The notes beneath the pieces are model-generated. The model did not search any database. It was not told where the DNA came from and worked only from the letters and a program-made list of their open reading frames with translations. DNA of 64,000 nt from Rhodospirillaceae bacterium (lineage in GTDB: Bacteria; Pseudomonadota; Alphaproteobacteria; Rhodospirillales; UBA2165). A program made the position numbers and the translations under genes. This document shows positions 40,549 through 58,385 of this stretch, piece by piece. Within the stretch, counting starts at the first letter, position 1; each line of letters begins with the position of its first letter. The stretch lies in NCBI GenBank assembly GCA_038127535.1, contig JAYPHU010000010.1, forward strand, positions 21,786-85,785, in the 5' to 3' direction.

Positions 40549-40571
40549 CGCTCGAAGCTGTTCGATAGAAG

Positions 40572-40742
40572 TTAATTATCGTCAAGATTCCATTTCACTT
40601 TTTTCTTCGAAACGAACGCGATACTACCACCAAGCCTTTTCATAGCTCTTCTTTCAAACTCCTCTTCGAGATCGGACGCGTCTCCTTTGCTAGTCGAAAC
40701 CTTTTTTTTCGGTTCGAAATTTCCCTTTAAAACATCTGACAT
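40572..40742 (-). CDS. Small hypothetical protein (56 aa, Lys/Glu-rich); below the ORF-track size cut-off
   Basis: ATG at 40742 preceded by AAAGGAA 8-9 nt upstream. Translation: MSDVLKGNFEPKKKVSTSKGDASDLEEEFERRAMKRLGGSIAFVSKKKVKWNLDDN, then TAA at 40572-40574. It fills the otherwise empty 223-nt gap between two genes. No homology evidence. Confidence 0.35.
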   Translation of the reverse strand: MSDVLKGNFEPKKKVSTSKGDASDLEEEFERRAMKRLGGSIAFVSKKKVKWNLDDN

Positions 40743-40771
40743 TTCTCGGTTCCTTTTATCTATTGAGCGGA

Positions 40772-41452: not shown

Positions 41453-41475
41453 TATGGAAAGGTTTTTATACAGCG

Positions 41476-42117
41476 TTAGTTTACTGCAAAAAAGTTGCGT
41501 AATATCTGCAACCCTGTTTCACCGCTTTTTTCAGGGTGAAATTGGCACCCACAGATATTCTCCCTCTGAACGGCGGCGGAAATCCGATAACCGTCGAAAT
41601 CGCTGTCAGCAAGACGAACATCGTCTTCGACAGGCACCGCCGAAAAGGAATGAACAAAATAGCATGTTGCGTCTTGCCGTATACCCTCCAAGAGGGTGCC
41701 GTTCCACGCGCGTCCTGTCACGGGCACCTGCAATGGCGACCAGCCAATGTGCGGCACCTTTCTGCGAATATTATTGTCGCCCTTTTTCGGTATCTCTCGA
41801 ATGCTGCCCTGAATGAGACCTAAACCGCGATGTACCCCGAACTCCTTGCTCTCTTCAAACAACAGCTGCATGCCTAGGCAAATACCGAGGATAGGCCTTC
41901 CCGATACGGCATGGTCTAAAATAGGTTCGATTAGCTTTCGACGGGACAGTTCTGCCATAGCATCGCCGAATGCGCCGACACCCGGAAGAATCAACCGGCC
42001 GACGCTGGCGACCTGTTCTGGGCTACTCGCGAACCCTACGTCGACACCGCAATATTCCAACGCTTTGCGTATGCTGAACAGATTGCCGCGATCATAATCT
42101 ATTATGGCAGTATGCAT
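41476..42117 (-). CDS. hisH: Glutamine amidotransferase subunit, HisH paralog (glycan-associated)
   Basis: GICLGMQLLFE (nucleophile Cys) and CGCQFHPEKSG (His/Glu). Trimmed to the ATG at 42117 (MHTAIIDYDRGN...). Confidence 0.85.
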   Translation of the reverse strand: MHTAIIDYDRGNLFSIRKALEYCGVDVGFASSPEQVASVGRLILPGVGAFGDAMAELSRRKLIEPILDHAVSGRPILGICLGMQLLFEESKEFGVHRGLGLIQGSIREIPKKGDNNIRRKVPHIGWSPLQVPVTGRAWNGTLLEGIRQDATCYFVHSFSAVPVEDDVRLADSDFDGYRISAAVQRENICGCQFHPEKSGETGLQILRNFFAVN

Positions 42118-42878
42118 TGGAAGTCTTGACGCACAAAGCGGCCGCACGACGCAGCAGTCGATCGAATATCATGTAAGCTTAATTTGTTGTAATGCAAAAC
42201 GTTCGCGATTGCTACGGCGTCCGCGCAACCAGTCACGACGACGTCGTGGACATGATCGACACTCCCCAAACCGCCGCTTGCGATAACCGGGACGTCTACA
42301 ACGGAGGCTATCGCACGGACCAGGGCAATATCAAATCCTTTTAACGTTCCTTCGCGGTCGATGGATGTAACGAGAATCTCACCGGCACCCAAATTTTCGG
42401 CTTCGCGCGCCCACTCAATAGCATCCCACTCCGAAGGTTCACGACCATTATCACCATAAGCCTTCCATCCGCCGGCAGTTGATTTCGCTTGAATCGACAA
42501 GACCACACACTGAGATCCCAATTGCCTTGACATATCCCTTATCAAATCGGGATTTTTGATCGCGGCCGTGTTAATGGCTATTTTATCAGCTCCGGCCCGC
42601 AATAAAATCCGGGCATCGTCTACGCTCCGAATGCCACCACCAACCGTGATTGGCACAAATACTTTTTCCGCCGTGCGGCTGACCAAATCGACAATCGTGT
42701 TGCGTTCGTAAAGGCTTGCCACTGAATCAATGTATATAATTTCATCGATACCTTCGCGGTAATATCGTTCCGCAAATGACCGTGGGTCACCGACCTTGCG
42801 CAACCCTTCCAAATGGGTGCCTTTGATGAGGTATGGTGCCTTGACATCCAGCCTTGCTATCAAACGAAGATTAGCCAT
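42102..42878 (-). CDS. hisF: Imidazole-glycerol-phosphate-synthase cyclase-like subunit, HisF paralog (glycan-associated)
   Basis: LIARLDVK, DEIIYIDSVAS, VGGGIRS, IASGGLGS. Confidence 0.85.
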   Translation of the reverse strand: MANLRLIARLDVKAPYLIKGTHLEGLRKVGDPRSFAERYYREGIDEIIYIDSVASLYERNTIVDLVSRTAEKVFVPITVGGGIRSVDDARILLRAGADKIAINTAAIKNPDLIRDMSRQLGSQCVVLSIQAKSTAGGWKAYGDNGREPSEWDAIEWAREAENLGAGEILVTSIDREGTLKGFDIALVRAIASVVDVPVIASGGLGSVDHVHDVVVTGCADAVAIANVLHYNKLSLHDIRSTAASCGRFVRQDFQCILP

Positions 42879-42884
42879 TTAATA

Positions 42885-44207
42885 TTATGCGTCCTCGGAC
42901 CAAGCAGCCGAGCGCAATGCCCATTCTCCATTTTCTATTTTCCAAATATGCGGCGAACGAAAATTGTCGCACAAGAGGTTGAAATATTCACGATCCAAAA
43001 TCGGTGACTCGAACGCCTTATGGGCTGTTTTGAATTCTTCTTTGGGAATGGAAAGATAGCGGAACAATTCTTCGGCAAATCTTTTCGGAAACTCACCATC
43101 ATAACGCCGGACCAGAGCGACACCTTCCTCTCTTGTGATATCGTCGGACCGAATTTCCTGGGCGGCGTCCGCCGTGGCCCTACCAATGCCGAATTTGATG
43201 AACGTCGTGAAATAGTGGAAATCATCCATCCGGTCATCAATGGAATTATACTTGCTGTAGGTCCCAGGCGTTCGCTCGGGCGAGGGTTCAAATCCACAAT
43301 GTTCCTGTGAGTAGTAATAACAACTCTGCGGATGCCACTTGAGATAATATCCAAGATAGTGAACCTCGGTTCCTACCCGCTCAAGTTCGCCCAGCTTCGC
43401 GGGAAGGTACGGATTGAGATCCACGCTTTCTACGCCGAACGTATTTTTTAAGTCGTCGACACTGACACCGCCGATAAAAATATTCCTGTCGTCGGTTTCG
43501 GTAAAAAAGGAATTATCACGCAACGCCGTCGAGACATCGGATCGCGGATTTCCATATTCGGCTTCGTTTTCGCCATAGAAAACCAGAGGAATGTCATAAA
43601 GCGCTGAATATCGCGGGGCCAGTGCTTTCTGTCCGATAATGAAGGGCTGAAACGGGTGAAAAAGAACGTCAACCGCCAATCTTGTGAGAAGCCGATGCAC
43701 TCGGCCGTTCGGCGTAACCAACACGTTGTCAAATCCAGCATGGATCCAGCGCTGAAAATTGCGCCACCCCCAGTCCGTATATATGTGGGGCGCCCAAGTC
43801 ACGGTCAAAGGATGCATGTTGAACTCGGTTTTTAATACGTGGGCGGCATAAAAACTATCCTTTCCACCAGAACCGGGAACCAAGCAGTCGTAATGCCCGT
43901 CATTTCTCCTAAACCGGTCACATAACTCTTCTAACATCTGGCGGCGTTCCGACCAGTCGATCGATTTTTTTTCTTGGGCTACGTGGCACGCGTCGCAAAT
44001 TCCGTCTTCATCCAAATTGATCGTTTTTTTACTGGAAGTCGCGACGTGTCTGAACTCAACAGCGGAATTGGGGCGTTGATTGGATATCACACAGGTACGG
44101 CAAAAGCACACCTCTTGCGGAAGGCCATATCGCGCAGGCTTTTCCGAAAGCGCCGGCAAGAAGTGATTGGGATCGATGGGCGAGGGGCGAGAAATACGTA
44201 TCGTCAT
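42885..44207 (-). CDS. N-acetyl sugar amidotransferase (WbpG/LfnA/PseA-like PP-loop enzyme)
   Basis: Cys pairs CRTC ... CDAC. PP-loop VPGSGGKDS. Trimmed to the ATG at 44207 (MTIRISRP...), 1 nt after the upstream stop. Confidence 0.8.
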   Translation of the reverse strand: MTIRISRPSPIDPNHFLPALSEKPARYGLPQEVCFCRTCVISNQRPNSAVEFRHVATSSKKTINLDEDGICDACHVAQEKKSIDWSERRQMLEELCDRFRRNDGHYDCLVPGSGGKDSFYAAHVLKTEFNMHPLTVTWAPHIYTDWGWRNFQRWIHAGFDNVLVTPNGRVHRLLTRLAVDVLFHPFQPFIIGQKALAPRYSALYDIPLVFYGENEAEYGNPRSDVSTALRDNSFFTETDDRNIFIGGVSVDDLKNTFGVESVDLNPYLPAKLGELERVGTEVHYLGYYLKWHPQSCYYYSQEHCGFEPSPERTPGTYSKYNSIDDRMDDFHYFTTFIKFGIGRATADAAQEIRSDDITREEGVALVRRYDGEFPKRFAEELFRYLSIPKEEFKTAHKAFESPILDREYFNLLCDNFRSPHIWKIENGEWALRSAAWSEDA

Positions 44208-44208
44208 T

Positions 44209-45267
44209 TTATTTTTCACTAAATACGGAACTGAATTCACCGTTCGCGCGGCGGTAATCTTCATATTGGCCAATGTCGAGCCAGTACTCTCTCACCGGGA
44301 ATGCTGCCGGAAAATCTCCTTGGTCGATCAGCATTTGGAATAAATCTGTCATGTTCAGCGGCGATCCTTTCTCTATTATCGACAAAACGGTTGGTTCCAG
44401 AACATAGATTCCGGCGTTCACATAATACGTTTTCGATGGCTTTTCGATTAAACGCGTTATTTTTCCATGGCCGATATCCACGACGCCGTAAGGAACTTGG
44501 AATTCAAATTCTCGAACGCACATTGTTGCTTGAGCGCCGTGTTCCGAATGAAATGCGAGTAATTGACTAAAATTCGTCTTGGTCAGAACGTCGGCGTTCA
44601 TGACAATCAACGGGTGCTCTATTTCTTCCTGGATAAGGCTGAGCGAACCAGCCGTTCCCAAGCTGTTATCTTCCTCGAGGTAGACAATATCCACACCCCA
44701 ACGGTCGCCGTCGCCAATATATTCCTTTACGCGATCGGCCATATAATTGACCGAAATAAAAAATCGGTTGAAATTGTATCCGACAAACGACTCCAGGATT
44801 GTTTCCAACAGCGGCTTCCGGCCAACCTCCAGAAGCGGTTTAGGCAGATGATCCGTCATAGGGCGCAGTCGTTGGCCTAATCCCCCAGCCATTAATACAA
44901 CCCAATTGTCCAGTGGCGCCGCAGTTTCGATATCGTCACGGATAACCAAGCCGACTACCGTTCCGGTGGTGTCGAGCAAAGGTAGTTGCCGCACACTGGC
45001 ACGTAACATGATCTCGTTATGGACAGCCTTCTCGACGTCCGGAGAACTCACAAGCGGATTGGGGTTCATAACGTCTTCAACCGTGCTTGATAGCGAGTGC
45101 GTCCGGATTAGGCCACGCCGGATATCACCGTCGGTAACCGTTCCCAAAAGGCGGTGGCCGGTATCAACGACAAGACAGATTTGCAAAGAACTCGCGTCGA
45201 TGATTTCGATCGCACGCTCCAGCGTTTCTTGAGGAAAAACCAGAGTATTTCTCCAATCTTTCACCAT
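44209..45267 (-). CDS. CBS-domain nucleotidyltransferase (PtmE-like sugar-1-phosphate nucleotidyltransferase of legionaminic-acid-type pathways)
   Basis: Tandem CBS region (GTVTDGDIRRG ... LPLLD). NTP-transferase core VLMAGGLGQRLRPMT. Confidence 0.8.
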   Translation of the reverse strand: MVKDWRNTLVFPQETLERAIEIIDASSLQICLVVDTGHRLLGTVTDGDIRRGLIRTHSLSSTVEDVMNPNPLVSSPDVEKAVHNEIMLRASVRQLPLLDTTGTVVGLVIRDDIETAAPLDNWVVLMAGGLGQRLRPMTDHLPKPLLEVGRKPLLETILESFVGYNFNRFFISVNYMADRVKEYIGDGDRWGVDIVYLEEDNSLGTAGSLSLIQEEIEHPLIVMNADVLTKTNFSQLLAFHSEHGAQATMCVREFEFQVPYGVVDIGHGKITRLIEKPSKTYYVNAGIYVLEPTVLSIIEKGSPLNMTDLFQMLIDQGDFPAAFPVREYWLDIGQYEDYRRANGEFSSVFSEK

Positions 45268-45283
45268 TTCCGATCCTTCCGCT

Positions 45284-46414
45284 TCACTTCGAACGTCTGC
45301 GCCGGGCTACGATCAGATCGTCTGTATCATAATGCCGTGTCGCTTTCTCGCCCAAATAAGACCAGAACATTTTCGGCGATACACCATTTCCGGGCCGTTT
45401 GATTCCGAGGTTTTGTTCGGTAAAAACATCGCCTTTTCTGATTGGCTGGCGGGCGACAAGACTTTTTCGGGCAATGGGCATATTCTTTAACTCGGATTCT
45501 GTTGGAGCTTTTTTTGTTGACCCCAGCGCAGCCTCTACCTCGCGAATTTGACGTACGAATTCTATTAATTCATTTGGTATCAGAGATGCTTTATGATCGG
45601 GACCGGGCAACGTTCGGTCCAAAGTGAAATGTTTTTCGATTATTCTTGCCCCTAATGCCACAGCAGCAGGTGCGGCTGAAATTCCAAACGAATGATCGGA
45701 GAACCCGACGGTCGTTCCAAAATTTGCTCGAATTTCTCCGATTGCCCCTAAATTTAGTTCGTCGATGGGAGCCGGGTATTCAGTCGTGCAGTGCAACAAT
45801 GAAACTTGATCGGTAATCCAATCCCGAACCGAGCTTTTCATTCGGGATTTTTTGAACCCGACCTCATATCGCGTCGGCTTCACTCCTTCATGCCCAGCGG
45901 CCAAGTATCCCAACGCGGAATCGATCTCGGAAATATTCGCCATTCCGGTTGAAAGAAAAACTCGATTGGCCAAACTGCCGACGCGAACGAGCAACGGAGC
46001 GTTCGTTATTTCGCCGGACGGTACTTTGATCGTATCGAGGCCTAGGCCATACACCAGAAATTCCAGACTCAATATGTCGAACGGGGTTGAAAGAAAATCG
46101 ATTTTATTGTGGCGGGCGTGTCGGACCAATTCACGATGAGCTTCTTTATCGAGCTCCAGTTTCCGGACCATTTCGAGTTGCGATGCTTCGTTTTTGACAT
46201 TTTTCACTTGATACGAAGCCATGGGCGCGTGGCTAGATATAACTTCGTCGGGAACGAATGTCTGAAACTTAACGGCATCGGCCCCGGCCGCCGCGGCGGC
46301 TTTTATCATCGTCTTTGCCCGCCGCAGACTTCCGTTATGATTAACCCCGGCTTCTGCTATAATATATACTTTTTGATTTTTTGATTTGTTAGACAACATG
46401 ATGAACCTGGACAT
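45284..46414 (-). CDS. neuB: Nonulosonic acid synthase (NeuB/LegI-like) with C-terminal SAF domain
   Basis: VYIIAEAGVNHNG, FSDHS, and a C-terminal SAF-like RKSLVARQPIRKGDVFTEQNLGIKRPG. Alternative ATG at 46399. Confidence 0.9.
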   Translation of the reverse strand: MSRFIMLSNKSKNQKVYIIAEAGVNHNGSLRRAKTMIKAAAAAGADAVKFQTFVPDEVISSHAPMASYQVKNVKNEASQLEMVRKLELDKEAHRELVRHARHNKIDFLSTPFDILSLEFLVYGLGLDTIKVPSGEITNAPLLVRVGSLANRVFLSTGMANISEIDSALGYLAAGHEGVKPTRYEVGFKKSRMKSSVRDWITDQVSLLHCTTEYPAPIDELNLGAIGEIRANFGTTVGFSDHSFGISAAPAAVALGARIIEKHFTLDRTLPGPDHKASLIPNELIEFVRQIREVEAALGSTKKAPTESELKNMPIARKSLVARQPIRKGDVFTEQNLGIKRPGNGVSPKMFWSYLGEKATRHYDTDDLIVARRRRSK

Positions 46415-47567
46415 CGATTAGGTCGTAGAATTGTTTTCTTTTCAGATCTTCTGCATTTGTTTGCCTGAGCGTGTCCGCGATGATATTCGACGCGTTCCCA
46501 ATAAGATAAGGAGAGCTCCCGTCACAATATTTTTCTCGGAATCCCAGATCGAGGCATTTCAATAAGCCATCGCGAATAGCTTCTCGCGAGGGATCGCAGT
46601 CAACCACCGAATTGGCCCGGAGCCTTCCTTTCTGCCGATCACCTATGTTGAGCGTGGGGGTTCCAAGGATCGGCGCTTCGAGCATTCCGCTCGATGAATT
46701 TCCAACTACCGCTGCTGATAGGGCAATAGCGCCGAGATAGAAGGTCTGACCAAGCGATTCAATAACCGCAACTCGTTCTGAATTCCTAGCAGAATAATCA
46801 CGAAAATAGTCGGAGATAAAATCGGACTTCGGATCGGCATTTACACCCGTAATGAGAACCATACGGTCGGGAAATTCGTCGATGGCCTTTGTGAGTTCGG
46901 TGACCGCCACCAAGTCGTCGATCCCGAGAGTGACAGGGTGATAGGTGACCAGGAAGAATTCTTCCCGGAGTTTTTGTCCTGCGCGTTTTGAAAGATCGCC
47001 CAGATTCGGAAGCTCGATACGGCCCAAAAAATCGATTCCTGGCGCACCCGATAAAATGACTCGCGCCGGGGCCTCTCCCAACTGGACAATCCTTTTTCGA
47101 TAAGCTTCCGCAGCCGCAAAATGTAGATGGGCCATTTTCGAAATTGCGTGACGAAACGATTCGTCCATTGCGCCTTCGGTAATTTCTCCGCCGTGGATGT
47201 GGGCGATTGGCACCCGCATTATCGTCGCCGCCATTGCCGCCGCCATCATCTCATAGCGGTCACCGAGAATGACCACGATCTCCGGCTTTAATCTGTCCAA
47301 CGACTCTGCCAGTTTGCCGACAGCCATGCCGACAGCATTCGCCACGGACAAATTTGTATCATCAAAAAGATCTATCTCCACTTTTTCGTGTATATCAAAC
47401 CCGTCAGCCTCGATCTCACGATAAGTAAGGCCAAACTTCTCCCTCAAATGTGCGCCGGTGACGATCCATTGCAGATCGGATTCGGGATCATCTTCGATAA
47501 TGCGCGCTAGCCAGCGTAAGTGGCCATATTCGGCCCGAGAGCCCGTTACGATACAAATAATTCGCAT
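46389..47567 (-). CDS. neuC: Hydrolysing NDP-N-acetylhexosamine 2-epimerase (NeuC/LegG-like)
   Basis: MRIICIVTGSRAEYG, VPIAHIHGGE, GNSSSG. Confidence 0.9.
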   Translation of the reverse strand: MRIICIVTGSRAEYGHLRWLARIIEDDPESDLQWIVTGAHLREKFGLTYREIEADGFDIHEKVEIDLFDDTNLSVANAVGMAVGKLAESLDRLKPEIVVILGDRYEMMAAAMAATIMRVPIAHIHGGEITEGAMDESFRHAISKMAHLHFAAAEAYRKRIVQLGEAPARVILSGAPGIDFLGRIELPNLGDLSKRAGQKLREEFFLVTYHPVTLGIDDLVAVTELTKAIDEFPDRMVLITGVNADPKSDFISDYFRDYSARNSERVAVIESLGQTFYLGAIALSAAVVGNSSSGMLEAPILGTPTLNIGDRQKGRLRANSVVDCDPSREAIRDGLLKCLDLGFREKYCDGSSPYLIGNASNIIADTLRQTNAEDLKRKQFYDLIDVQVHHVV

Positions 47568-47622
47568 CGCTTGACTCGCGGCCTTTGACGGTCATAAAAG
47601 GCCTTGTCCGAAAACATGGACG

Positions 47623-48531
47623 TTAAAAGCACTCGGATTTGTAGGTGCGCGCGATACCGTCTAGGAGCGCAACATGAGGCCGGTACCCCAAAACGGTTTG
47701 CGCCTTCGAGATATCAACATTGAAACGAGAAATCGGTTCGCGAAGATCTGGTTTTTCCGACACGACCACCTTCCCGCGACCAACCGTTTGGACGCAAGCC
47801 CCAGCAATCTCATTAATACTGACCATATTCCCGTGGCCGATGTTGAAAATGCCTTCGGCGCCACGATCGGTGACTAGGATTATTGCCTGCGCCACGTCAT
47901 CTGCGTGAACGAGATTGATGCGATCGTCAGTCGGTGGATCCAGCTCCAACTCTTCTCCTCGGCTCGCTTTGGCGAGGAAAGATGAGATCAACTTATCCGA
48001 ACTTTGTCCCGTTCCATAAATTGCCGTTGCCCTTAAAATGGAAACATGAAGCCCTTTCCCGCGCAGGTTAATAAGTACCTGCTCACCAAGCGACTTCGAA
48101 AAACCATATTCACCCAATTGTTCGCCGGAGGCCAATGGAGCATTTTCATCTTTGAGAGAGGCACCATCCGAATCAGAGTATACAATCGCGCCCGAGAGAT
48201 ATATGAGCATAATCCCCCTCTCGGCTGCCCACTCTCCCAGGCAAAGGCACGCCCGAACATTAGCGTCGAACCAATCAGGCGAACGATATCGCTGCCCGCC
48301 CTCGGGGGTCTCCGCACCGATATGCAGGAATGCCTGGACGTCCGGAAACATTTCGTCGAGTTCTTCCGCCGACTTCCAATCCGACAAATCCCAGACAACC
48401 CAACCCGGCCGATGGGAGTTTACAGATCGCGAACTGCATATGCTTTCAACCCCCCTTTGATCGAGACGGCTCAGCAAATGGCGACCAACGATACCGGAAG
48501 CGCCGCTAACAGCAACCTTGCTTAAAGGCAT
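47623..48531 (-). CDS. NAD-dependent epimerase/dehydratase (extended SDR)
   Basis: VSGASGIVGRHL and YGFSKSLGE (YxxxK). Confidence 0.8.
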   Translation of the reverse strand: MPLSKVAVSGASGIVGRHLLSRLDQRGVESICSSRSVNSHRPGWVVWDLSDWKSAEELDEMFPDVQAFLHIGAETPEGGQRYRSPDWFDANVRACLCLGEWAAERGIMLIYLSGAIVYSDSDGASLKDENAPLASGEQLGEYGFSKSLGEQVLINLRGKGLHVSILRATAIYGTGQSSDKLISSFLAKASRGEELELDPPTDDRINLVHADDVAQAIILVTDRGAEGIFNIGHGNMVSINEIAGACVQTVGRGKVVVSEKPDLREPISRFNVDISKAQTVLGYRPHVALLDGIARTYKSECF

Positions 48532-49559
48532 GCATCGTGTCGCAGAAGAGATAACGATTCGATATCCTTTTCATTAGCCGTTTCAAAATAAATTTCCTCC
48601 AAATAACGCATGGCGACTCCGTTCTTTATTTCCGGCTGAACGATGTTTTCGCGAAGAAGAAAACTGCGGATTGCGAACTCAGGATCATTGAATCCGAAAT
48701 GTGCACGAATCGCCGTCGTACCCGAGAATCGAGCATTGAACTCAAACGGAACGGGGCCGTCCGAACCGACCATTAACTGGATATTGAACGGCCCAACGAT
48801 GCCGAGGTTTTCGACGCAGTTGCGAACGACCTCGGATATATTTGGAAAATCACCCACCTCGGCAATCCATGTGTCGCCGCCTCTAAGCGCGCGCCTTGCC
48901 GTAAATGGGCCAAATAGCGTGTTATCGGACGCGACGAAGACACTGCTGGTAAATTCATAGGATAACGCCGGACTTGGCTCGGCGATCATCCTTTGGAGCA
49001 TTGGGTTCGGCACATGATCAAACAACTGGGATAATTCATCCGAAGTCTTTATCAAATGAACATTCCGCGCCGAAGAGCCTGTTCTGGATTTTAGAACAAG
49101 CGGGTACCCGAATTCCTTGGCGTCGCCTAGTGCCTCTTCATGCGAGCGCGGAACAGAAGATTGCGCATGAGGCAGTCCCAAACGCTTCAGATGGCCGACG
49201 GTTTTCCACTTGTCATCGGCCAAATCGATTATTTCAGGCCCTGATACAACGATTACCGCGCCCGTATCGCGCTCGAGATCCATCCGATGCCGGGAAAAGA
49301 ATAAAAGATCGTGTTCAGAGCCAATGAGCACGAGGTCGATGTTTTCACTGCGTAACAATTCGGCAATCTCATTGTACTTCCCATCGATTTCAAGGCGGGG
49401 TAATAAAACCGCTGCATCGGTCCAATGAAAGCCAACGGCGTTGGGCGTGATATCCGCGCCAACGATTTCGAGGTCCAATTTACTCGCTTTCAGGGCCTTG
49501 ATAATCGCCTGCCCCACGCCACCGCCAACACCGGTTACGAGTACTCTTAAAGCTGCCAC
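48522..49559 (-). CDS. ATP-grasp family ligase
   Basis: Pre-ATP-grasp Rossmann start RVLVTGVGGGVGQAIIKAL. Central GYPLVLKSRTGSSARNV. C-terminal FEFNARFSGTT, typical of CPSase-like ATP-grasp proteins. Confidence 0.7.
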   Translation of the reverse strand: MAALRVLVTGVGGGVGQAIIKALKASKLDLEIVGADITPNAVGFHWTDAAVLLPRLEIDGKYNEIAELLRSENIDLVLIGSEHDLLFFSRHRMDLERDTGAVIVVSGPEIIDLADDKWKTVGHLKRLGLPHAQSSVPRSHEEALGDAKEFGYPLVLKSRTGSSARNVHLIKTSDELSQLFDHVPNPMLQRMIAEPSPALSYEFTSSVFVASDNTLFGPFTARRALRGGDTWIAEVGDFPNISEVVRNCVENLGIVGPFNIQLMVGSDGPVPFEFNARFSGTTAIRAHFGFNDPEFAIRSFLLRENIVQPEIKNGVAMRYLEEIYFETANEKDIESLSLLRHDACL

Positions 49560-50266
49560 GGATTTTCCGCTCCGGTCATGATCCGATGTATTTTACCGAC
49601 CTCTGCCGTGCTGTGCGCATTCGAGCCAAAGGACACTCTCGCTCCCGCACTAAGACACCATTCGAGAAACTTAGATGGTTTCGGGTGGTAGCGAGCATTG
49701 ATTTCGAATGCGATGTCCGTCTCCGCAGCAAGTTCAATCACTTCTTTTATCAGGTCGTCGGGCGGAGCAACCCCGAAACGTCGGTAGCTCATGCCAAACG
49801 GATGACCGAGCACATCAATCGGGCTATTGCGCAGAGCGGCGCACATCAATTCGAACTCCATATCGATCGCCAAAGCTGCTGATCTGTTTTTTGTTCCCGC
49901 ATCGGAATCCGTTTCGCCGGGGAACCGATGGACGCTGGCCATGACTTGATCACAACAAGCAAGAATATTATCGGTGGCATCCAACGCTCCGCTTTTATCC
50001 AGGATCTTGACTTCCACCCCGACATACGCGCGACAAGGGCTCGCAGGAAGGCTGCGAATTTCGTCCGCGAATTTTGGAAACCAACCACCACTGGAACCGC
50101 GCGCGTGCTCGCTGAACGCGATTGCTATCATCCCTGTGAGAACTGCTTGATCGTACATCTCGATCGACGAGTTTTCGCCGTCGGTCCAATTTGTATGCAT
50201 GTGAAGATCGACCGGCGGAATTTCGGCGTCATTCCACAACTCTTCAACGAATCGCGGCGGTTTCAT
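49547..50266 (-). CDS. PHP-family phosphoesterase (HisJ-like)
   Basis: VDLHMHTNWTDG (HxH), FSEHA, and later His residues of the PHP trinuclear site. Confidence 0.75.
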   Translation of the reverse strand: MKPPRFVEELWNDAEIPPVDLHMHTNWTDGENSSIEMYDQAVLTGMIAIAFSEHARGSSGGWFPKFADEIRSLPASPCRAYVGVEVKILDKSGALDATDNILACCDQVMASVHRFPGETDSDAGTKNRSAALAIDMEFELMCAALRNSPIDVLGHPFGMSYRRFGVAPPDDLIKEVIELAAETDIAFEINARYHPKPSKFLEWCLSAGARVSFGSNAHSTAEVGKIHRIMTGAENPWQL

Positions 50267-51423
50267 TGGATCAAACGTTCGAACAAGGGTACGAATACGT
50301 CGCCGGACAACCCGTATTTCGTTCTTCCGTCTGCGACGATCTCGCCGAAATAGGTCATCGCCGAAACAAAAATGACGGATACCTGTTTGTAGGACTCATC
50401 GCTGCAATGGCGGATCGGTTGAAGCGCCGCAGGCAGATATTTTCCTTTTTTGGAAATATCGCCATCAAAACATATGATGCGGTCCGAGTGGATATTAGTG
50501 GAATGCAAAAAGGAATTCAGGCCATTTGTAGCGCCGTGGAAACCAACCAGCTTGCCGCGTTCAAGGTGGCTAATTACCAGTTCTTGGCCGCGGGCCACAG
50601 AGTCTCTAAAAGCATTGCCAGCTTTCACCAGACTACCTGTTTCACGTATTTTATGTAGCTTTTGTGCGGGTAAATCGGTTTTCTCGGCAGCAATCCAAAG
50701 GCTGTCTTCGTGAGAGTCAAATGCGACCGGCTCCAAACCCGCAGACCGCAAAAGGTTCAGTGCAGATTCCCTATCGAAATAAGAAAGATGTTCATGCGAT
50801 ACCACGTTCAGATCACCGGACTCGAATTGTCGCTCCGTGTCCGGAAATGACAATATTGCTCGCCCCCCTTGCCGGAGCGACCTGTGGATCTCCGTCAGAA
50901 ACGAATAGGGATCGTCCACATGTTCAAGGCAATTGAACGATAGAACCCGGTCGAATGTCCTTTGCGAAAGCTGGCGCGAAGGAAAGTAATCGGTGATGAT
51001 TTCAATCTCCTGATCCGAGCACTTTCTCAATGCAGGATCGATGACGACCGGTTTTGCGGTTTCAAATTCGTGCGCTATCTCCGCTGACACAAGTCCGGAG
51101 CCTCCACCAATTTCCAGAACGCCGGCCCCCGCACAGAAATCACCATTCTCCAAGATAAATTTGATCTGCGTGCGGCCGAGGCGATTGGCCCAGTCAGACA
51201 ATCCCGGAGGTAGCGTAAAATGGACATAACTCTCGTTTCCGTATGCCTCAACGATTTCTCGGCGCGTTTCTATCGGCGTGGTTTGCCGAAAATAACCCAT
51301 AGAATCTTGGCCAAGACTGAGCGGCAACAGCGGCCCCATCCCTGGTGACTCCTGCGGGCCGTGCCAAACAGGCAGCGACGGAAAACGGATTTCAGCTCCA
51401 CAAATTTCCAAAAAGTCCTTCAT
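50263..51423 (-). CDS. SAM-dependent methyltransferase with C-methyltransferase-type C-terminal domain (TylCIII-like architecture)
   Basis: Motif I VLEIGGGSGLVS. C-terminal LVGFHGATNGLNSFL ... FDGDISKKGKYLP, resembling the sugar C-methyltransferase accessory domain. Confidence 0.7.
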   Translation of the reverse strand: MKDFLEICGAEIRFPSLPVWHGPQESPGMGPLLPLSLGQDSMGYFRQTTPIETRREIVEAYGNESYVHFTLPPGLSDWANRLGRTQIKFILENGDFCAGAGVLEIGGGSGLVSAEIAHEFETAKPVVIDPALRKCSDQEIEIITDYFPSRQLSQRTFDRVLSFNCLEHVDDPYSFLTEIHRSLRQGGRAILSFPDTERQFESGDLNVVSHEHLSYFDRESALNLLRSAGLEPVAFDSHEDSLWIAAEKTDLPAQKLHKIRETGSLVKAGNAFRDSVARGQELVISHLERGKLVGFHGATNGLNSFLHSTNIHSDRIICFDGDISKKGKYLPAALQPIRHCSDESYKQVSVIFVSAMTYFGEIVADGRTKYGLSGDVFVPLFERLIQ

Positions 51424-53480
51424 TCAGCGAATTCTTTTGAATTTGTGGGGCGTACTTTATAGAAGAAGAAATCCGCGCTAATTTCTTCGGACATTTTTCG
51501 AAGGGTGAACCCTTTTTTTTCCGAAGAGAACTGTTCCCGTTGGCGTTCAATTGCAGTGCGCTGCTGTTCCGGCAGAAAGAACTCGTAATCGTACCGGTCG
51601 CTCGAGCTAAGCTGCGCAGGCCGGCCTTTGTACCCGCTTTGTCTCCATGCCAGCAGATCGTAGTGAAAACTTTTACGCTTCACTTCAACGAGATCGTCCT
51701 GACCGGTTAATTCAATCCGCGTCTCGGCACCGAAGGATAGCACTTCATCGCAAAGAGCCAAAAATTCTTCGGCTTCATCCAAGCCATGATCCGCTGCCAA
51801 CTCCTTGGCAACATTTAGCAAAAGCGCATTGAAGGCCTCGTAATGCTGCAAAAGTATTTCGTAGGTGTATTGATAATTGAGCTTTCCGTATTGCCCGCTA
51901 CGCAACCGCTCGAGATTGTCGGGTATCTCCCAATAATCCGCCAGCGCTCCCATGGTCGGAAAGTTTTCCAGGTCGTGATCTGCCCGAAACCGTTCGTAAA
52001 GTCTCCCGATTTCTCCGTCGCTTGATTTAGCCGCCTCGGAAATTTTTAAAATAACATCGACGGGATGAATGCCCGCTTGATAGAAAAGATGCAAATAGTC
52101 GTAATACCATTTTCGACCCCACATCATTTGAATCAGAAAGTGAACAAAGCGGAAACCGCGCAACTCATCGACAGGCATCGAAGATGTTTCTAAAACAACC
52201 TCCTGTCCCTCGAAAATAGCCCTATTCTCGTAAACGCCGAACGCATTGTCGTGCAATCGCCAACCTGTCCGCAGGAAATACTTCTCCCGCGACTCTTCGG
52301 AATCCATTTCGGTTCCCGGAAGGAGGTGGAGGTTGTAGTTAAATACTTCGGCTCCGACATCGATCATGCGCCGGATGCTGTCCAAATGGGTTTCACTGGT
52401 TTCGTTAGGCAACCCAAGAATTAGCTCGGTAAATAAGGATGCTCCCGCACCTTCGGACTGCAACGCTTTAGTCATCTCGACCACATCTTCGAGTTTAAGA
52501 TTTCGCCTCTTGATGGCTTCGAGCACTTGGGGATTGAGCGATTGCATGGAAGCCCCCACTTCGCCGATATCGCCCAAGGCGCGGGCGACGCGCAATACCC
52601 GGTCGGGTCGGCTCTTATTCCATTGAGCGGAAACATGACTAGGATAGCCGTACCTTTTCTGACAATCGCGCAGATTTTCAGCAATCGATCGGTCGCGGTC
52701 CAAGATCGAAAAATTTGCGTCTGCGATAAATAGGTTCATCGATTTCTTGCAATTACGTCCCAGGTACTCAATTTCATCGAAAACCCGCTGATCGGAGAAC
52801 CGCGCAAGCTTTCCCGTACCAATACCCCATGCGCAAAACGTACACCGGTAGGGGCACGAGCGGTTTGTTTCCAGGATTGGCACGAACGGCTCATCAAAGA
52901 ATTCATCCATTGAGCCGTTGAGGTAAGGCGACGGAATTTCGTCGAGATCCCGGATCACGTCCAATTCAGAGCCAATATGAATTCGATTATGACCCTGGAG
53001 ATCATTAATCAATGCGCCGTCCAACACATCCGATACGAAACGCTTGCGGTCGCCATTTAGCGAAAGGAAGCGTTCCACCAAGGAAGCAAATCCGCGTTCG
53101 CCTTGATTGACGACGTAAGCGTCACAAGCCGACGAAGCGGAAAAAAATTTTCGCGCCGCCTCATCATTAGCGTTGGCGCTGGTAAAATTCGGCCCACCAC
53201 CGACGCACAAAGCGTTCGGAACTTCCTGACGAGTGATGTCAAAAACCAACGCATTGAGATTTGCGTTCCAAACGTAATGGGACAGCCCAACGACATCGGG
53301 TTTTTCGCGCTTGATGGCGTCGATCATCTGTTGGGGACGCTTAAACAGACGAAATTCAAGGTCTTCGGCGACCATTTTGTCCGTGTAGGCAGCGATGTAG
53401 CCAACATTGAGCGGAAAGGTCCAAAGACTGACCTTCTCCCAATCATGCACCAGATCAGCGAGAAAAATCTTAAGGCTCAT
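51420..53480 (-). CDS. B12-binding (class B) radical SAM protein, 686 aa
   Basis: N-terminal B12-binding-like region (VVGLSHYVWN ... VGGGPNF). ETNRSCPYRCTFCAWG (CxxxCxxC). First gene after the 334-nt leader. Confidence 0.85.
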   Translation of the reverse strand: MSLKIFLADLVHDWEKVSLWTFPLNVGYIAAYTDKMVAEDLEFRLFKRPQQMIDAIKREKPDVVGLSHYVWNANLNALVFDITRQEVPNALCVGGGPNFTSANANDEAARKFFSASSACDAYVVNQGERGFASLVERFLSLNGDRKRFVSDVLDGALINDLQGHNRIHIGSELDVIRDLDEIPSPYLNGSMDEFFDEPFVPILETNRSCPYRCTFCAWGIGTGKLARFSDQRVFDEIEYLGRNCKKSMNLFIADANFSILDRDRSIAENLRDCQKRYGYPSHVSAQWNKSRPDRVLRVARALGDIGEVGASMQSLNPQVLEAIKRRNLKLEDVVEMTKALQSEGAGASLFTELILGLPNETSETHLDSIRRMIDVGAEVFNYNLHLLPGTEMDSEESREKYFLRTGWRLHDNAFGVYENRAIFEGQEVVLETSSMPVDELRGFRFVHFLIQMMWGRKWYYDYLHLFYQAGIHPVDVILKISEAAKSSDGEIGRLYERFRADHDLENFPTMGALADYWEIPDNLERLRSGQYGKLNYQYTYEILLQHYEAFNALLLNVAKELAADHGLDEAEEFLALCDEVLSFGAETRIELTGQDDLVEVKRKSFHYDLLAWRQSGYKGRPAQLSSSDRYDYEFFLPEQQRTAIERQREQFSSEKKGFTLRKMSEEISADFFFYKVRPTNSKEFAE

Positions 53481-53628
53481 TCGAAATCGCGGCTAAGACG
53501 GCTGGAACAATCAATGACAACAAGTTTGGAAAAATCGTCGCACTCGGCAGGGGCAAAAATCGCTTTATTCAAGCCCCGCGAAATGGTGCAGCTCAATATT
53601 ATCGTTCGGAAACCCAATCGGATTTACC

Positions 53629-53640
53629 CAAGCTACCGCA
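53629..53640 (-). promoter_or_regulatory. ops-like element (candidate RfaH recruitment/pause site)
   Basis: The minus (sense, non-template) strand reads TGCGGTAGCTTG. The ops consensus as I recall it is GGCGGTAGnnTG. Only position 1 differs among the fixed positions. It lies in a non-coding leader about 150 nt upstream of the 53480 start codon. An RfaH-like gene is encoded at 57130..57633. Confidence 0.4.
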
Positions 53641-53660
53641 GGCCGGGTGAAAAGACACGA

Positions 53661-53693
53661 CCAAGCGTTCATCACCTGAACAGTAACGCTTGG
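53661..53693 (-). terminator. Perfect 9-bp inverted repeat hairpin (candidate terminator/attenuator)
   Basis: CCAAGCGTT, then 15 nt, then AACGCTTGG. On the minus strand it is followed by TCGTGTCTTTTC and preceded by a T7 run. The loop is long and the U-tract is interrupted. Confidence 0.3.
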
Positions 53694-53743
53694 CGCAAAA
53701 AAAGCAAGGAAAATTAAGCCCAAAACGCCATATATTTAAAACC

Positions 53744-53764
53744 GCCACTATATTTCTTAGTGGC
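53744..53764 (-). terminator. Short hairpin just downstream of the aminotransferase gene (weak terminator candidate)
   Basis: GCCACTA, then 7 nt, then TAGTGGC. On the minus strand it is followed by GGTTTTAAATATA. Confidence 0.2.
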
Positions 53765-53814
53765 CGATGTTGTTGCTATGTTCACGGCGCCTTACCGCAA
53801 AAATTTAGCCAAAC

Positions 53815-54972
53815 TTATTGGTCAGCTAAACGGGGGCTGGAAGGCAAACAAATCAACTGGTTATACAACAATTCAGTCATTCTCAGATCAGCCCGAGGTG
53901 CATCCTTGTAAGCGTCCAACAAGTGAATTGGACGCCACAAGGGGCGGCTCATGAAACCGGCATCATTAAGTTCCTGCAATAATATGTCTCGAAAAGACGC
54001 CGATTCTGAACTGAGACGGACCGTGTTCAGCCAATAATTACTGAGGCATTCCGGTGGCTCGGATATAAATACTGCTGAACTAAGGCCATCAAACGCTTGA
54101 CGATAGTACTGAGCAAGCAGGCGTTTTCGCGCCACGAAATCGCTCAGATTCTCCAGCTGACCGCAACCGAGCGCCGCGTTCAAGTTCGGCATTCGGTAGT
54201 TATATCCTATTCCGTCGTGGATGAATTCCCAGCGATGGGCAATTTTCGCATTTGTCGTGAGGTGCCGGGCCCGTTCCGCTATACGATCATTCGACGTTAC
54301 TATTGCGCCACCGCCACCTGTAGTGACAATTTTGTTTCCGTTGAAACTGAATACCGAGACGAGCCCATCATTCCCAGTGTGGCGCCCATGATAATAAGAC
54401 CCAAGAGATTCTGTTGCATCTTCGATCAAGATGATTCCGTAACGCCTGCAGACCTCGGCAAGCGCATCCAGTTGCGCCGGATGGCCGAATACATGAACGC
54501 AAATAAGCGCCTTGATCGATCGGCCCGTCTTTGAGTTAACCAGTTTACCGTTTGAATCCCTGTCATAATTACTTAAATGCTGATCAAGCTTAACCGGATC
54601 GATTCCGAACGTGTATTGCTCGGCATCAACAAAATGAGGCACGGCGCCGGCGTGGGCAACCGCGTTTGCGGTAGCAACGAATGTCAAAGATGGAATGACG
54701 ACCTCGTCACCCCGCCCGACACCGGACGTCGTTAACGCGGCATGAAGTCCAGCTGTTCCCGAGGAAACAGCAATCGCATGTTTTGTTCCGATGATCTCGC
54801 ACAGCATGCCTTCAAAGCGATTTACATATGAACCGGCAGTAGACACCCATTCCGTATCCAAACACTCCTTCACATAGGCCCATTCGTTTCCGGTAATCTC
54901 GGGCGCATGCAATGGCGCCCCGTCCTTTACGACAGAACGTACGGCTGCGACAATCCGTTCGACTTCTTTCAT
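53815..54972 (-). CDS. DegT/DnrJ/EryC1/StrS-family sugar aminotransferase (LegC/PglE-like)
   Basis: PLP-Lys region VSVFSFNGNKIVTTGGGGAI. HAPEITGNEWAYVKECLD at the N-terminus. Confidence 0.9.
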   Translation of the reverse strand: MKEVERIVAAVRSVVKDGAPLHAPEITGNEWAYVKECLDTEWVSTAGSYVNRFEGMLCEIIGTKHAIAVSSGTAGLHAALTTSGVGRGDEVVIPSLTFVATANAVAHAGAVPHFVDAEQYTFGIDPVKLDQHLSNYDRDSNGKLVNSKTGRSIKALICVHVFGHPAQLDALAEVCRRYGIILIEDATESLGSYYHGRHTGNDGLVSVFSFNGNKIVTTGGGGAIVTSNDRIAERARHLTTNAKIAHRWEFIHDGIGYNYRMPNLNAALGCGQLENLSDFVARKRLLAQYYRQAFDGLSSAVFISEPPECLSNYWLNTVRLSSESASFRDILLQELNDAGFMSRPLWRPIHLLDAYKDAPRADLRMTELLYNQLICLPSSPRLADQ

Positions 54973-55811
54973 TTCACTGCTTCAACGTACAGCGATTTGT
55001 CAGGATAAGTGGTATCCAATCCCAACATTCTTTTTATTTCGAAAAAATCGCCCGTCGTCAGCCAGCCGCCCTCACCCTTAAGTTCGTTAAACCGGCTGGC
55101 CTGCGGAGACGAACGATAGACATTCGTGAATCCGGCATCCTGCAACATTTGTTCGAGTTTTTGATAATTAAACCAGTTGATGTGGTAACCGCCTTTCTCT
55201 TGTTGCACGGCACGAGATGCGTCGAGCGTGTAGCGATCGGCAAAATCTTCGGGCGAGAGTTGAGAGAATTCCCGCCGTATTTCCTCCGCCGACACCGAAT
55301 CAAGCATGGCTGTCGCGATCTGTTCGACGACCGCCTGTTCTATTGTCAAATCTCGCGCGGACGCAGCTAAAAAATAGGATAAATCGTTGCGGTCCGCAGC
55401 ATCCCGAATCAAGTCGTAGTCCGGCATATTTAGGCGCACTGCGCCACCTGGCCGAAGACAGCGATAGATTTCCATCAAAATGCTTGGGCAGTTTTCCTGA
55501 GGTATATGTTCCAAGGTATGAGACGAGTAAAAAAAATCGACACTATTGTCGTCAAATGGAAAGTGGCTTAGCGCCATCATATCGACATCGATATCGATGT
55601 AACGGCGCTGGAATGGGTAATAAGAGGAAACGTGATCCAATACTTTCCAATGTGGCCGAAAAAATAATCCTCCACCGATATTTACCATAAGACGTGCGCG
55701 TTCTCGTGATGGAAACAGCATCGCGTGTATTCGTTTGCGGACGAGAAGAAGTCGAGTGAGAATCTGGAATTTGGCGATCAGGAATAATCGTTGCGCTAAT
55801 GTGTTCATCAC
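54969..55811 (-). CDS. Class I SAM-dependent methyltransferase
   Basis: MVNIGGG ... FFYSSHTLEHIP ... IYRCLRPGGAVRL (Methyltransf_11-like blocks). GTG at 55811 or ATG at 55808. Confidence 0.75.
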   Translation of the reverse strand: MMNTLAQRLFLIAKFQILTRLLLVRKRIHAMLFPSRERARLMVNIGGGLFFRPHWKVLDHVSSYYPFQRRYIDIDVDMMALSHFPFDDNSVDFFYSSHTLEHIPQENCPSILMEIYRCLRPGGAVRLNMPDYDLIRDAADRNDLSYFLAASARDLTIEQAVVEQIATAMLDSVSAEEIRREFSQLSPEDFADRYTLDASRAVQQEKGGYHINWFNYQKLEQMLQDAGFTNVYRSSPQASRFNELKGEGGWLTTGDFFEIKRMLGLDTTYPDKSLYVEAVK

Positions 55812-56848
55812 TGATTCGAGTCGAGTGGATAATCGATATCATAATTGCCGAAGAACCGGGGTGGAGATTGAATGTCGCGAAACAGGCCTTGATCCATTGC
55901 CTTGATCAACTCCCCAACTCCATCTTCAACGCTAACGGCCGGAACGAAACCTATCTTTTCCCGGATTTTTGAAAAGTCGACTCGATAGTTCCGCGGATCA
56001 GAACCTTTCTCCTGGAAACAAACTTTCCCACGTTGCAGCCGGTCGGTGATCGTATCCACGATCATCCGTTTCGTAAAATTATTAATGTCGCCACCGGCAT
56101 TGAAAACGTCAAAGGCAACATCATCAACGTCAGCTTCAAGAACCATTTGCACAGCACGGGCAAAATCTCGGACGTGACAATAAGGCCTCCAAGTATCCGG
56201 ATCATAAACCAGAAGCTCCCTCCCCAGGTAAAGTTCGCGGGTAAACTCACTCACCGTTAGATCAAATCGCATGCGGGGGCTCAAACCGAAGGCTGTTGCG
56301 AAACGCAAAATCGTCGGAATGAAACCTGAATCTCGCGGAAGCTGCAAAATCTTTCGTTCGATATTTACTTTTGCGACGGCATACGCGGACAACGGATTTA
56401 ACTCGAAATCTTCGCTAGCAAGTTCATCCGTTTCGATCAGACCATAATTGGAACAGGTAGAAACATATATTACCCGGCCCAGCCTACGGTCGGACAGTAG
56501 ATCGAACGTTTGATCATAGGCTCGGTCATTAATCCACTCGGACTGTTCCGGAAATTTTCGCGTTATTGGATCACCTACCAAACCGGCCAAAAATACGATA
56601 TCGGTTATGCCATCCAGAGCGGCGATCATTTGATCCGAATTTGCAATATCTCCATAGCAAAATTCAAACCCTGGCTGGTTATAAAAAATTGGAACGACGG
56701 TCTGATTGTCGTAAATAAGCCGGTCAAACATGCGTACTTGGTAACCGGCTCGAATCAGGTGGTCGGCCATTATTGTTCCAATGTAACCGGCGCCTCCGAC
56801 AAGAAGCAATTTTCGTTCGCAACAAGTTATGCTTGAATTATTGGACAA
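55808..56848 (-). CDS. NAD-dependent NDP-sugar epimerase/dehydratase (extended SDR)
   Basis: LLLVGGAGYIGT and YAVAKVNIE (YxxxK). TTG start preceded by GAGAAAGG. Confidence 0.85.
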   Translation of the reverse strand: MSNNSSITCCERKLLLVGGAGYIGTIMADHLIRAGYQVRMFDRLIYDNQTVVPIFYNQPGFEFCYGDIANSDQMIAALDGITDIVFLAGLVGDPITRKFPEQSEWINDRAYDQTFDLLSDRRLGRVIYVSTCSNYGLIETDELASEDFELNPLSAYAVAKVNIERKILQLPRDSGFIPTILRFATAFGLSPRMRFDLTVSEFTRELYLGRELLVYDPDTWRPYCHVRDFARAVQMVLEADVDDVAFDVFNAGGDINNFTKRMIVDTITDRLQRGKVCFQEKGSDPRNYRVDFSKIREKIGFVPAVSVEDGVGELIKAMDQGLFRDIQSPPRFFGNYDIDYPLDSNQ

Positions 56849-57635: not shown

Positions 57636-58385
57636 TTATACCTCGTTATCCGGATCGGATTGCCAGACTGTACGAAGAAGCTTCGGGGCAAATATACGAT
57701 CTCCCGGAAACTTATCCGCGATCTCATCGCATATGGAATCGAGGTCGCCAAAATCCGTGACGATAACGGCATCAATGGATGATGGCTCTGGAAATGTCCG
57801 AACAATCGGGGTTCCACAAAAATCTGAAGAACGAGTGGCGTCATCGTAAATTGCCACTATAGTTACGTCGCTCTCGCGCGCGACCATCAGCGCAATTTCC
57901 GTCAAGTCGGAAAGACCGTGAAGCGACACTCGATGATGTCCCTTTTGCTCGCAACTACCAAATATTTCACTAAGTTCCTTCCGTGCAATACGAAAAAATT
58001 GGAAGCCTTGGCTAAGATATTCCGCAGTCAAGCGGCTTTTTTCGGAGAATCCCCGTGGAGTGAGGTAGTAGGCATAGCGGTTTGCAGGAACCTGCTGAAC
58101 TTTAATCCAGCCCTTCTTAATACAACGTTTTACATAGGCATTAGCGAGACCGAGAGCGATTCCGAGTTCCTTTGCAACTGAACGCTGGCTCACACTAGCG
58201 TCATTAGCAACGGCATTAAGAATGCCCAATGTAATCGCGAGACTGCCATCGGATTTGCCCCTATCGGCATAATCCCGATTAACGTTTTCACTTCCTTCCT
58301 TAAGAGTGTTCATAAAATGAACGTAGCAGGGCCAGCCTGGATCGTCAACTAGATAAAGTTCACCGATCGCGCTGAAATATCTCAC
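57636..58385 (-). CDS. EPS-associated MarR-like winged-helix regulator with a C-terminal Rossmann-like extension
   Basis: wHTH region SQRSVAKELGIALGLANAYVKRCIKKGWIKVQQVPANRYAYYLTPRGFSEK. About 110 extra C-terminal residues (RVSLHGLSDLTEIALMVARESDVTIVAIYDD ... IDAVIVTD). The track start is GTG at 58385, and an ATG at 58313 (MNTLKEG...) is an alternative. Confidence 0.7.
   Translation of the reverse strand: MRYFSAIGELYLVDDPGWPCYVHFMNTLKEGSENVNRDYADRGKSDGSLAITLGILNAVANDASVSQRSVAKELGIALGLANAYVKRCIKKGWIKVQQVPANRYAYYLTPRGFSEKSRLTAEYLSQGFQFFRIARKELSEIFGSCEQKGHHRVSLHGLSDLTEIALMVARESDVTIVAIYDDATRSSDFCGTPIVRTFPEPSSIDAVIVTDFGDLDSICDEIADKFPGDRIFAPKLLRTVWQSDPDNEV

Follow-up and report, generated by a model that had tools for sequence, protein, structure and literature searches.

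The locus raises the question of whether an ops-like 12-mer in an internal 334-nt leader serves an RfaH-like protein that is encoded in the same gene cluster, or merely resembles such a site. We refer to the whole 64,000-nt stretch of DNA that was analyzed as the window; the features within it are collected in Table 1. In our judgment the site is probably a genuine ops/JUMPstart-type element that is used by the cluster-encoded RfaH-like protein and stands at the head of an operon of about 53 kb.

Reading upstream from the element, the window encodes a LegC-type aminotransferase, a methyltransferase and an epimerase/dehydratase, followed by a leader (281 nt with the longest ORF, 359 nt with the start chosen by the gene caller), the NusG paralogue and a MarR/winged-helix gene. 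The latter ends 2 nt upstream of the rfaH-like gene and is called by gene callers as a protein of 225 aa (57636-58313). As the original prediction had it, the paralogue encoded 3.5 kb upstream of the element is RfaH-like, RfaH being its best-scoring family. Downstream, from 53480 to about 407, all sizeable ORFs lie close-packed on the minus strand, and it is presumably on this 53-kb array that the loaded factor acts. In its upstream part, the portion covered by gene calling and Pfam families, the array includes NeuB, UDP-GlcNAc 2-epimerase-type, ATP-grasp, PHP-domain, B12 radical SAM and methyltransferase genes, a set that suggests a heavily modified nonulosonic-acid glycan. Sugar-nucleotide and polysaccharide genes such as these are the usual cargo of RfaH-type regulators (PMC7593976). 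Elsewhere in the window, a ribulose-phosphate 3-epimerase-domain gene (61120-63864, minus strand) extends past the window end; on contig L001 the same gene encodes 1297 aa, which is unusually large for this domain.

Table 1. Features of the window that bear on the ops-like element.
Feature	Position	Strand	Basis or remark
B12-binding radical SAM protein, 686 aa; first gene past the element	51420..53480	(-)	Pfam / family profiles
Closely spaced, co-directional genes for polysaccharide and nonulosonic-acid biosynthesis, about 53 kb	407..53480	(-)	ORF map
Whole hairpin-plus-ops match to model R1	53626..53662	(-)	27.2 bits, E 3.6e-6
Ops-like 12-mer TGCGGTAGCTTG	53629..53640	(-)	Sequence and 67 aligned family sites
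Family-type stem-loop GGTCGTGT-cttttc-ACCCGGCC	53641..53662	(-)	R1 alignment, one stem mismatch
9-bp hairpin CCAAGCGTT...AACGCTTGG	53661..53693	(-)	Window-specific; 2-nt overlap with the family stem
Terminator-like hairpin, 7-bp stem GCCACTA..TAGTGGC, then GGTTTTAAAT	53744..53764	(-)	Consensus scan
Epimerase/dehydratase, methyltransferase, and LegC-type aminotransferase genes, all three located between rfaH and the element	53815..56848	(-)	
RfaH-like NusG paralogue, 167 aa	57130..57633	(-)	Pfam NusG 81 bits; TIGR01955 132.4 bits
MarR/winged-helix regulator	57636..58385	(-)	HTH_24; TIGR04176 MarR_EPS 65 bits, below the cutoff of 88

The 12-mer itself was read directly from the sequence. On the minus strand, which is the sense strand here, positions 53640-53629 stand in the context ...CCAAGCGTTactgttcaggtgatgAACGCTTGGTCGTGTcttttcACCCGGCC TGCGGTAGCTTG ggtaaatc..., and 11 of the 12 bases (positions 2-9, 11, and 12 among them) are identical to the E. 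coli ops element GGCGGTAGnnTG. The sole difference is at position 1, as originally predicted, and it counts as a mismatch with respect to E. coli ops; it does not within the family described below, where T is the consensus at this position (62 of 67 aligned sites). Also borne out was the caution that a match of this quality is not statistically rare: one-mismatch matches to GGCGGTAGNNTG occur 4 times in the window versus 2.95 +/- 1.6 times in shuffles, and 36 of 100 shuffles contained at least 4. The 12-mer by itself is thus not significant in the window and, no rarer than chance as it is, leaves the decision to comparative data. For these, we built a covariance model (R1) comprising a 10-bp stem plus ops from 16 seed sites of equal length; MAFFT alignments had misplaced the 5' arm of the hairpin, upon which RNAalifold gave a trivial 2-bp stem, hence the equal-length seed. 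With filters off, R1 found a single significant match in the full window, the site under study, and the runner-up scored 6.7 bits, consistent with the earlier statement that the other leaders hold no comparable match. The extended site TTCACCCGGCCTGCGGTAGCTTG fits a 42-nt family element consisting of a stem-loop that abuts TGCGGTAGCnTG, and both the flanking box and the core agree.

The comparative set consisted of 80 genome loci (1.37 Mb) encoding relatives of the window protein (44 to 53% identical), with every locus turned so that this gene reads on the plus strand. In these loci, we counted 59 copies of GCGGTAGNNTG, one in each of 59 loci, on the strand of the rfaH-like gene versus two on the opposite strand, and 57 of the 59 sites are located 542 to 594 nt from the gene start, just beyond the stop codon. 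The sites have a longer consensus, tTCACCCGGAnTGCGGTAGCnTG, in common. No such enrichment is seen for the plain GGCGGTAG form, with 19 occurrences on the plus and 25 on the minus strand. Using R1, we detected the element in about 67 of the 80 loci (about 85%), always on the plus strand; 65 plus-strand sites had E values of 0.0012 or below, three were weaker, and all but two were located just past the gene. Among the 67 aligned sites, ops positions 2-9 are conserved in 66 to 67, T11 in 65, and G12 in 63. Two independent metagenome contigs likewise carry the element directly after the gene (35.9 and 42.1 bits). Contigs with a protein identical to that of the window came from one sequencing project and added no diversity, and a metagenome search with the window protein yielded only two distant relatives (26 to 30% identity), both without the element. 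The named relatives are Alphaproteobacteria, including Bradyrhizobium, Afipia, Nitrobacter, and Rhodospirillales. A BLAST search of plasmids with the 42-nt consensus gave no match at an E value of 0.01 or below and only chance-level Lactobacillus matches at up to 10.

The conservation of the site, its linkage to rfaH-like genes and its strand relative to them are direct observations, and the strand count and the occurrence in about 67 of 80 loci support the original proposal of an ops-like element that serves the cluster-encoded RfaH paralogue at the operon head. Together with the R1 score, conservation across the loci effectively refutes the reading of the site as a functionless chance match. 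The unremarkable frequency of the 12-mer alone would permit such a reading, but the flanking TCACCCGG box and the stem agree too, the R1 match has an E value of 3.6e-6, and the element recurs in the large majority of related loci, so that we regard its probability as negligible.

The second part of the element is a near-universal hairpin, nnCCGGGTGA, a loop, and TCACCCGGnn, the 3' arm of which ends immediately before ops position 1. Its pairing is backed by covariation in the 67-site alignment. Standard pairs make up 85.9% of the cells versus 79.7% in shuffles and 33 to 50% when the partner is slid, and cells altered on both sides number 39 versus 16.8 in shuffles and 3 to 23 with the partner slid. 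Compensatory change is seen at 6 of the 10 stem pairs, and none of 500 shuffles scored as high for covariation. Fitting to R1 biases the alignment toward the structure, although a trivial effect is made less likely by the slide control. G-U combinations (36) far outnumber A-C combinations (3) at three of the stem positions, as would be expected if the sense strand, and hence the RNA, folds. The upper stem GGGTGA/TCACCC is invariant and thereby uninformative on pairing, and its invariance hints at sequence-specific recognition. The family stem is followed by UGCGGUAGC and lacks the combination of a GC-rich stem and a U tract that marks an intrinsic terminator.

The same symmetry could be taken for a duplex DNA operator, the inverted repeat CCGGGTGA-N-TCACCCGG being bound by the rfaH-linked MarR-type regulator, with the ops-like part either included or incidental. 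In 74 of the 80 loci, an HTH/MarR-type homologue indeed immediately precedes the rfaH-like gene, the upper stem is invariant on both arms, and the distance between the arms is similar in most sites, with 31 of 57 in the 27- to 28-nt classes. Yet loop length varies widely, the span from the first base of the stem to ops position 1 ranging from 23 to 44 nt. Moreover, the basal pairs covary with a G-U over A-C asymmetry that would be meaningless for duplex DNA, and the best-conserved part of the element is the asymmetric GCGGTAGCnTG, equal to E. coli ops. The site is also located downstream of the regulators' genes rather than at their promoter, and in the window ops and the 3' arm are preserved but the 5' arm has degenerated. 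We consider an operator very unlikely.

Compared with the family, the window copy is atypical in several respects. In most related loci, no gene separates the rfaH-like gene and the element, the stem begins a median of 37 nt past the rfaH stop codon, and a median of 47 nt separates ops from the next ORF. In the window, three genes (3.5 kb) intervene, the preceding stop codon is that of the aminotransferase, at 152 nt, and 148 nt separates ops from the next ORF. The stem-loop through ops position 1 measures 23 nt, versus mostly 27 to 28 nt in the family. The window stem, whose 3' arm likewise ends immediately before ops position 1, has a folding energy of only -6.0 kcal/mol, versus -11 to -19 kcal/mol for three related loci under the same folding, and with 27.2 bits versus 60 for the best member the copy is among the weakest of the family. 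Nevertheless, no base that is invariant in the family is altered in its ops core or its 3' arm; the degenerate arm is the 5' one.

Displacement of the element from its gene has parallels elsewhere. In locus L069, the element is found 5.9 kb from the rfaH-like gene, past divergent genes, where it leads a separate operon. There (L069:16150-16520) it is located within a leader of about 200 nt with a CTTGACA box about 100 nt upstream, a trans-type layout like that of E. coli ops. Conversely, L087, whose protein is the closest relative with DNA compared (56% identity), has no element after rfaH, ahead of its epimerase gene. As these two loci show, displacement of the element is tolerated. In the Rhodospirillales locus L048 (10533-12711), the element directly precedes a gene for a 699-aa B12 radical SAM protein that is 32% identical to the product of window 51420-53480, so that the junction between ops and a B12 radical SAM gene is common to both. 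A repeat search around the three intervening genes of the window, aimed at duplication scars, gave only short chance pairs. A few of the remaining loci have degenerate elements: GCGGCAGCAATCG, TCACCTAGGCTGCGGTAGCAATGG, and GCGGTAGCTATAG are found at most 120 nt past the rfaH-like stop codon in L084, L068, and L078, respectively, where loss of the T-G pause step or of T6 may reflect decay in some lineages. Bradyrhizobium retamae (L007) shows tandem copies at 4297-4338 and 4536-4578, about 240 nt apart (44.2 and 25.3 bits), the second of which is a weaker TGCTGTAGC variant.

These features invite the view that the window site is a real family member but now a decaying relic, separated from its gene when a rearrangement placed three genes in between, and working poorly in this organism. 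The weak stem, the competition from a stronger overlapping hairpin (see below), an R1 score among the lowest of the family, and the serine at residue 23 of the window protein, where 23 of 31 relatives have R, would all fit, as would the lack of an element after rfaH in L087 and the clearly degenerate copies in the three loci just named. On the other hand, the intact core and 3' arm, the position of the site exactly at the head of a long gene array, the recurrence of the B12 radical SAM junction in L048, and the example of L069, by which a displaced element is a normal arrangement, speak against decay, and we hold a relic to be unlikely. The weakened and displaced copy may nevertheless be less than fully functional.

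The surroundings of the element within the leader differ from what had been expected. The perfect 9-bp hairpin that the original prediction placed about 20 nt upstream of the 12-mer is present; its 3' end is located 20 nt ahead, and with flanking pairs it folds at -17.1 kcal/mol. It competes for 2 nt with the weak family stem (-17 versus -6 kcal/mol). When the proposed conservation of the 12-mer and this flanking hairpin was checked, however, only the ops-type core proved to be kept. The 57-locus alignment shows no conservation upstream of the family stem and hence no counterpart of the 9-bp hairpin; what is conserved instead is the weaker stem at 53662-53641 that abuts the core. Farther upstream, the terminator-like hairpin is located 50 nt past the aminotransferase stop codon, although terminator-like sites as such are not enriched there (10 seen versus 8.6 expected from shuffles). 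Given this hairpin, the element may be part of the 5' leader of a separate transcription unit. Polymerase may thus arrive at the element either from upstream, with terminator-like hairpins intervening, or from a promoter in the leader. A promoter scan of the minus strand of the 334-nt leader returned no promoter-like site. By eye, a weak TTGCTT-N16-TACTGT (8 of 12 matches) can be discerned about 25 nt before the family stem; we do not rely on it. The idea that RfaH would act by antitermination past the terminator-like hairpins upstream of the site does not hold. RfaH loads at ops, and hairpins upstream of it are therefore beyond its reach; the factor would load only after these had been passed and affect only the approximately 53 kb downstream.

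The next start codon, predicted at about 150 nt, is located 148 nt downstream of the element, at 53480. In the 20 nt ahead of this radical SAM ATG (window 53481-53500, minus strand), cgtcttagccgcgatttcga, there is no run of purines resembling a Shine-Dalgarno sequence. A frequent lack of ribosome-binding sites is described for the targets of E. coli RfaH (PMC13015549).

Of the family models scored, that of RfaH fits the window protein best. The protein scores 132.4 bits with TIGR01955, short of the cutoff of 144.5, versus 80.7 for UpxY, 56.2 for NusG, and 43.7 for LoaP (cutoff, 125). Among solved structures, E. coli RfaH is its closest relative (E value, 1e-13), with an ungapped alignment over residues 1-103, and even the nearest relatives in the database share only about 56% identity with it. 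In E. coli, ops is read by the RfaH side chains K10, H20, R23, and R73 (PMC5995543). Of these, only K10 is kept in the window protein, which has N20, S23, and F73, so that three of the four side chains are gone. Across 31 family sequences, residue 10 is Q, H, K, or R, residue 20 is N in 23, residue 23 is R in 23, and residue 73 is F or I in 25; Q24 is Q in the family and in the window protein. At the position of E48, the window protein has A, as do 19 of the 31 sequences, and E never occurs; R138 and F130 are retained in the window protein. In E. coli, R73 lines the pocket for the flipped-out T6; the family has F or I, aromatic or hydrophobic residues, there, yet T6 is invariant in the DNA.

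The AlphaFold2 model (pLDDT, 89.6) has a β-barrel KOW C-terminal domain, with five β-strands in residues 119-165. Full-length structural matches to the model were limited to active RfaH and NusG, and autoinhibited RfaH matched over the N-terminal domain alone. Metamorphic RfaH is marked by a C-terminal domain that is α-helical and autoinhibitory and by a salt bridge between E48 and R138, and both hallmarks are absent from the prediction and the alignment. The window protein is therefore predicted to be a monomorphic RfaH by published criteria (PMC13015549), a single prediction that leaves fold switching possible.

Conceivably, a protein of this kind might read the signal mainly as RNA, with the hairpin bound by the NusG paralogue or a partner in a LoaP-like manner and the ops-like DNA supplying only a pause. 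The invariant upper stem, which suggests sequence-specific recognition past simple pairing, would fit, as would a protein without the E. coli pocket residues for T6, and a solved NusG-RNA complex (8f5g) is among its structural neighbors. But bases G4-G8 are invariant here, and in E. coli they are dispensable for pausing and needed for RfaH binding (PMC5995543). The score with the LoaP family model, moreover, is far below its cutoff. We find it most unlikely that recognition is mainly through RNA.

We return, then, to a genuine ops-type element and to how it might work. At E. coli ops, RNA polymerase pauses at C9 and U11, and G4-A7 are looped out of a small non-template DNA hairpin in which G5 and T6 are read by the four side chains named above; G4, G5, A7, and G8 are required for RfaH and dispensable for pausing (PMC5995543). 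That the bases read or required by RfaH are invariant in the family implies that they are read here as well, and this invariance would be hard to explain otherwise. If the E. coli case is a guide, polymerase that transcribes the minus strand would pause at the T-G step of the 12-nt ops on the non-template strand, with the nascent-RNA stem-loop directly upstream. The last pair of the stem would then be located 12 nt behind the paused 3' end (U11), which is the register of hairpin-dependent pauses. At the his pause, a nascent hairpin in the -12 register prolongs pausing, and 2- to 3-nt backtracking occurs at ops, which the stem would also block. The paused complex would display GCGGTAG on the non-template strand, and the RfaH-like protein encoded 3.5 kb upstream would bind, stay on the polymerase, and suppress pausing and Rho-dependent termination over the next approximately 53 kb. 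In other words, a hairpin-reinforced ops pause may buy loading time for a locally made factor. The pause, protein binding, a part played in it by the hairpin, and an influence on the expression of downstream genes are what we infer from these parallels, and the hairpin-pause mechanism in particular is put forward tentatively, at somewhat less than even confidence. The weak copy, its 3.5-kb displacement, the three missing side chains, the reported ops independence of β-type homologues (PMC13015549), and the invariant, noncovarying upper stem all count against our preferred explanation; a pure pause hairpin would not need an invariant GGGTGA/TCACCC.

The element can be compared with several known systems. 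With E. coli ops it has in common 11 of 12 positions, including those for RfaH binding (G4, G5, T6, A7, and G8) and for the pause (T11/G12) (PMC5995543), a sense-strand location within the leader of a long polysaccharide operon, and a linked RfaH homologue, here linked by position. It differs in that T is the family norm at position 1 and in that the gene for its partner is located in cis, most often some 40 nt ahead of it, whereas the partner of E. coli ops is encoded in trans. In contrast to E. coli RfaH, the family protein is without H20, R73, and E48 (the window copy also without R23), and its KOW domain is predicted to remain a β-barrel permanently. The Gammaproteobacterial JUMPstart element (RF01707) has the same architecture, with no more than about one base between the 3' arm of its stem-loop and ops position 1. 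A galF-rfbB leader of E. coli, our positive control, scored 61.1 bits with the Rfam model, the structure of which is a 5-bp stem-loop ending one base before GGCGGUAGCGUG. The stem of the present family differs, however, with 8 to 10 bp (GGGTGA/TCACCC) versus 5 bp (CUGG/CCAG), and the family is without the conserved box 5' of the stem. The Rfam JUMPstart model found nothing at E values up to 10 in window 53300-59000 or in the strong family member L008, with its gathering score of 35 bits unreached. An Rfam scan of the whole window at gathering thresholds found nothing relevant, and R1 gave the E. coli JUMPstart site only 11.2 bits. The element is a variant of the JUMPstart/ops kind that falls outside RF01707 membership. 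It further resembles his-type hairpin-dependent pauses, in sequence geometry only, since the stem ends at ops position 0, equal to -12 relative to U11; the pause core here is an ops/consensus-pause sequence and not that of the his leader.

The first genes past ops in the family encode PseB-like dehydratases, Gfo/Idh/MocA oxidoreductases, DegT aminotransferases, or an ABC transporter. In Bradyrhizobium, Nitrobacter, Rhodospirillales, and relatives, R1 would allow annotators to mark where polysaccharide operons that depend on RfaH begin, sites that Rfam misses. More generally, the recruitment mode of operon-encoded NusG paralogues is reported to be known only for E. coli (PMC7593976). Our literature searches, of incomplete coverage, found no description of an alphaproteobacterial ops/hairpin element. 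The family now offers a concrete candidate site of about 40 nt, nearly invariant and directly past the gene in most of the alphaproteobacterial loci, which makes the recruitment question testable: does a protein without R73, H20, and E48 read G5/T6, and does the RNA hairpin hold polymerase for loading?

The closest published counterparts on the protein side are the monomorphic, cis-encoded RfaH homologues, which likewise have a predicted β-type C-terminal domain and a natural A at the E48 position (PMC13015549), and the RfaH cluster CL4, similar by description only, which is encoded in or near its presumed target operon beside an HTH regulator (PMC7593976). Unlike in either report, a near-invariant ops is found here immediately downstream of the gene. 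A 2026 preprint describes RfaH homologues with a β-type C-terminal domain as acting independently of ops and proposes recruitment in cis by proximity (PMC13015549), and Wang et al. place ops contacts and autoinhibition, R73 included, late in RfaH evolution (PMC7593976). A near-invariant ops beside β-type RfaH-like proteins does not easily fit these views and is, to us, the main source of interest. Possibly, although we consider this rather doubtful, the ops signal is older than the specialized E. coli-type RfaH, so that a nonautoinhibited, cis-encoded F73 protein without the H20/R73 pocket is still ops dependent, and ops and the invariant RNA hairpin form a two-part DNA-plus-RNA loading signal. 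If true, this would overturn both the late origin of ops recognition and the ops independence of monomorphic RfaH homologues.
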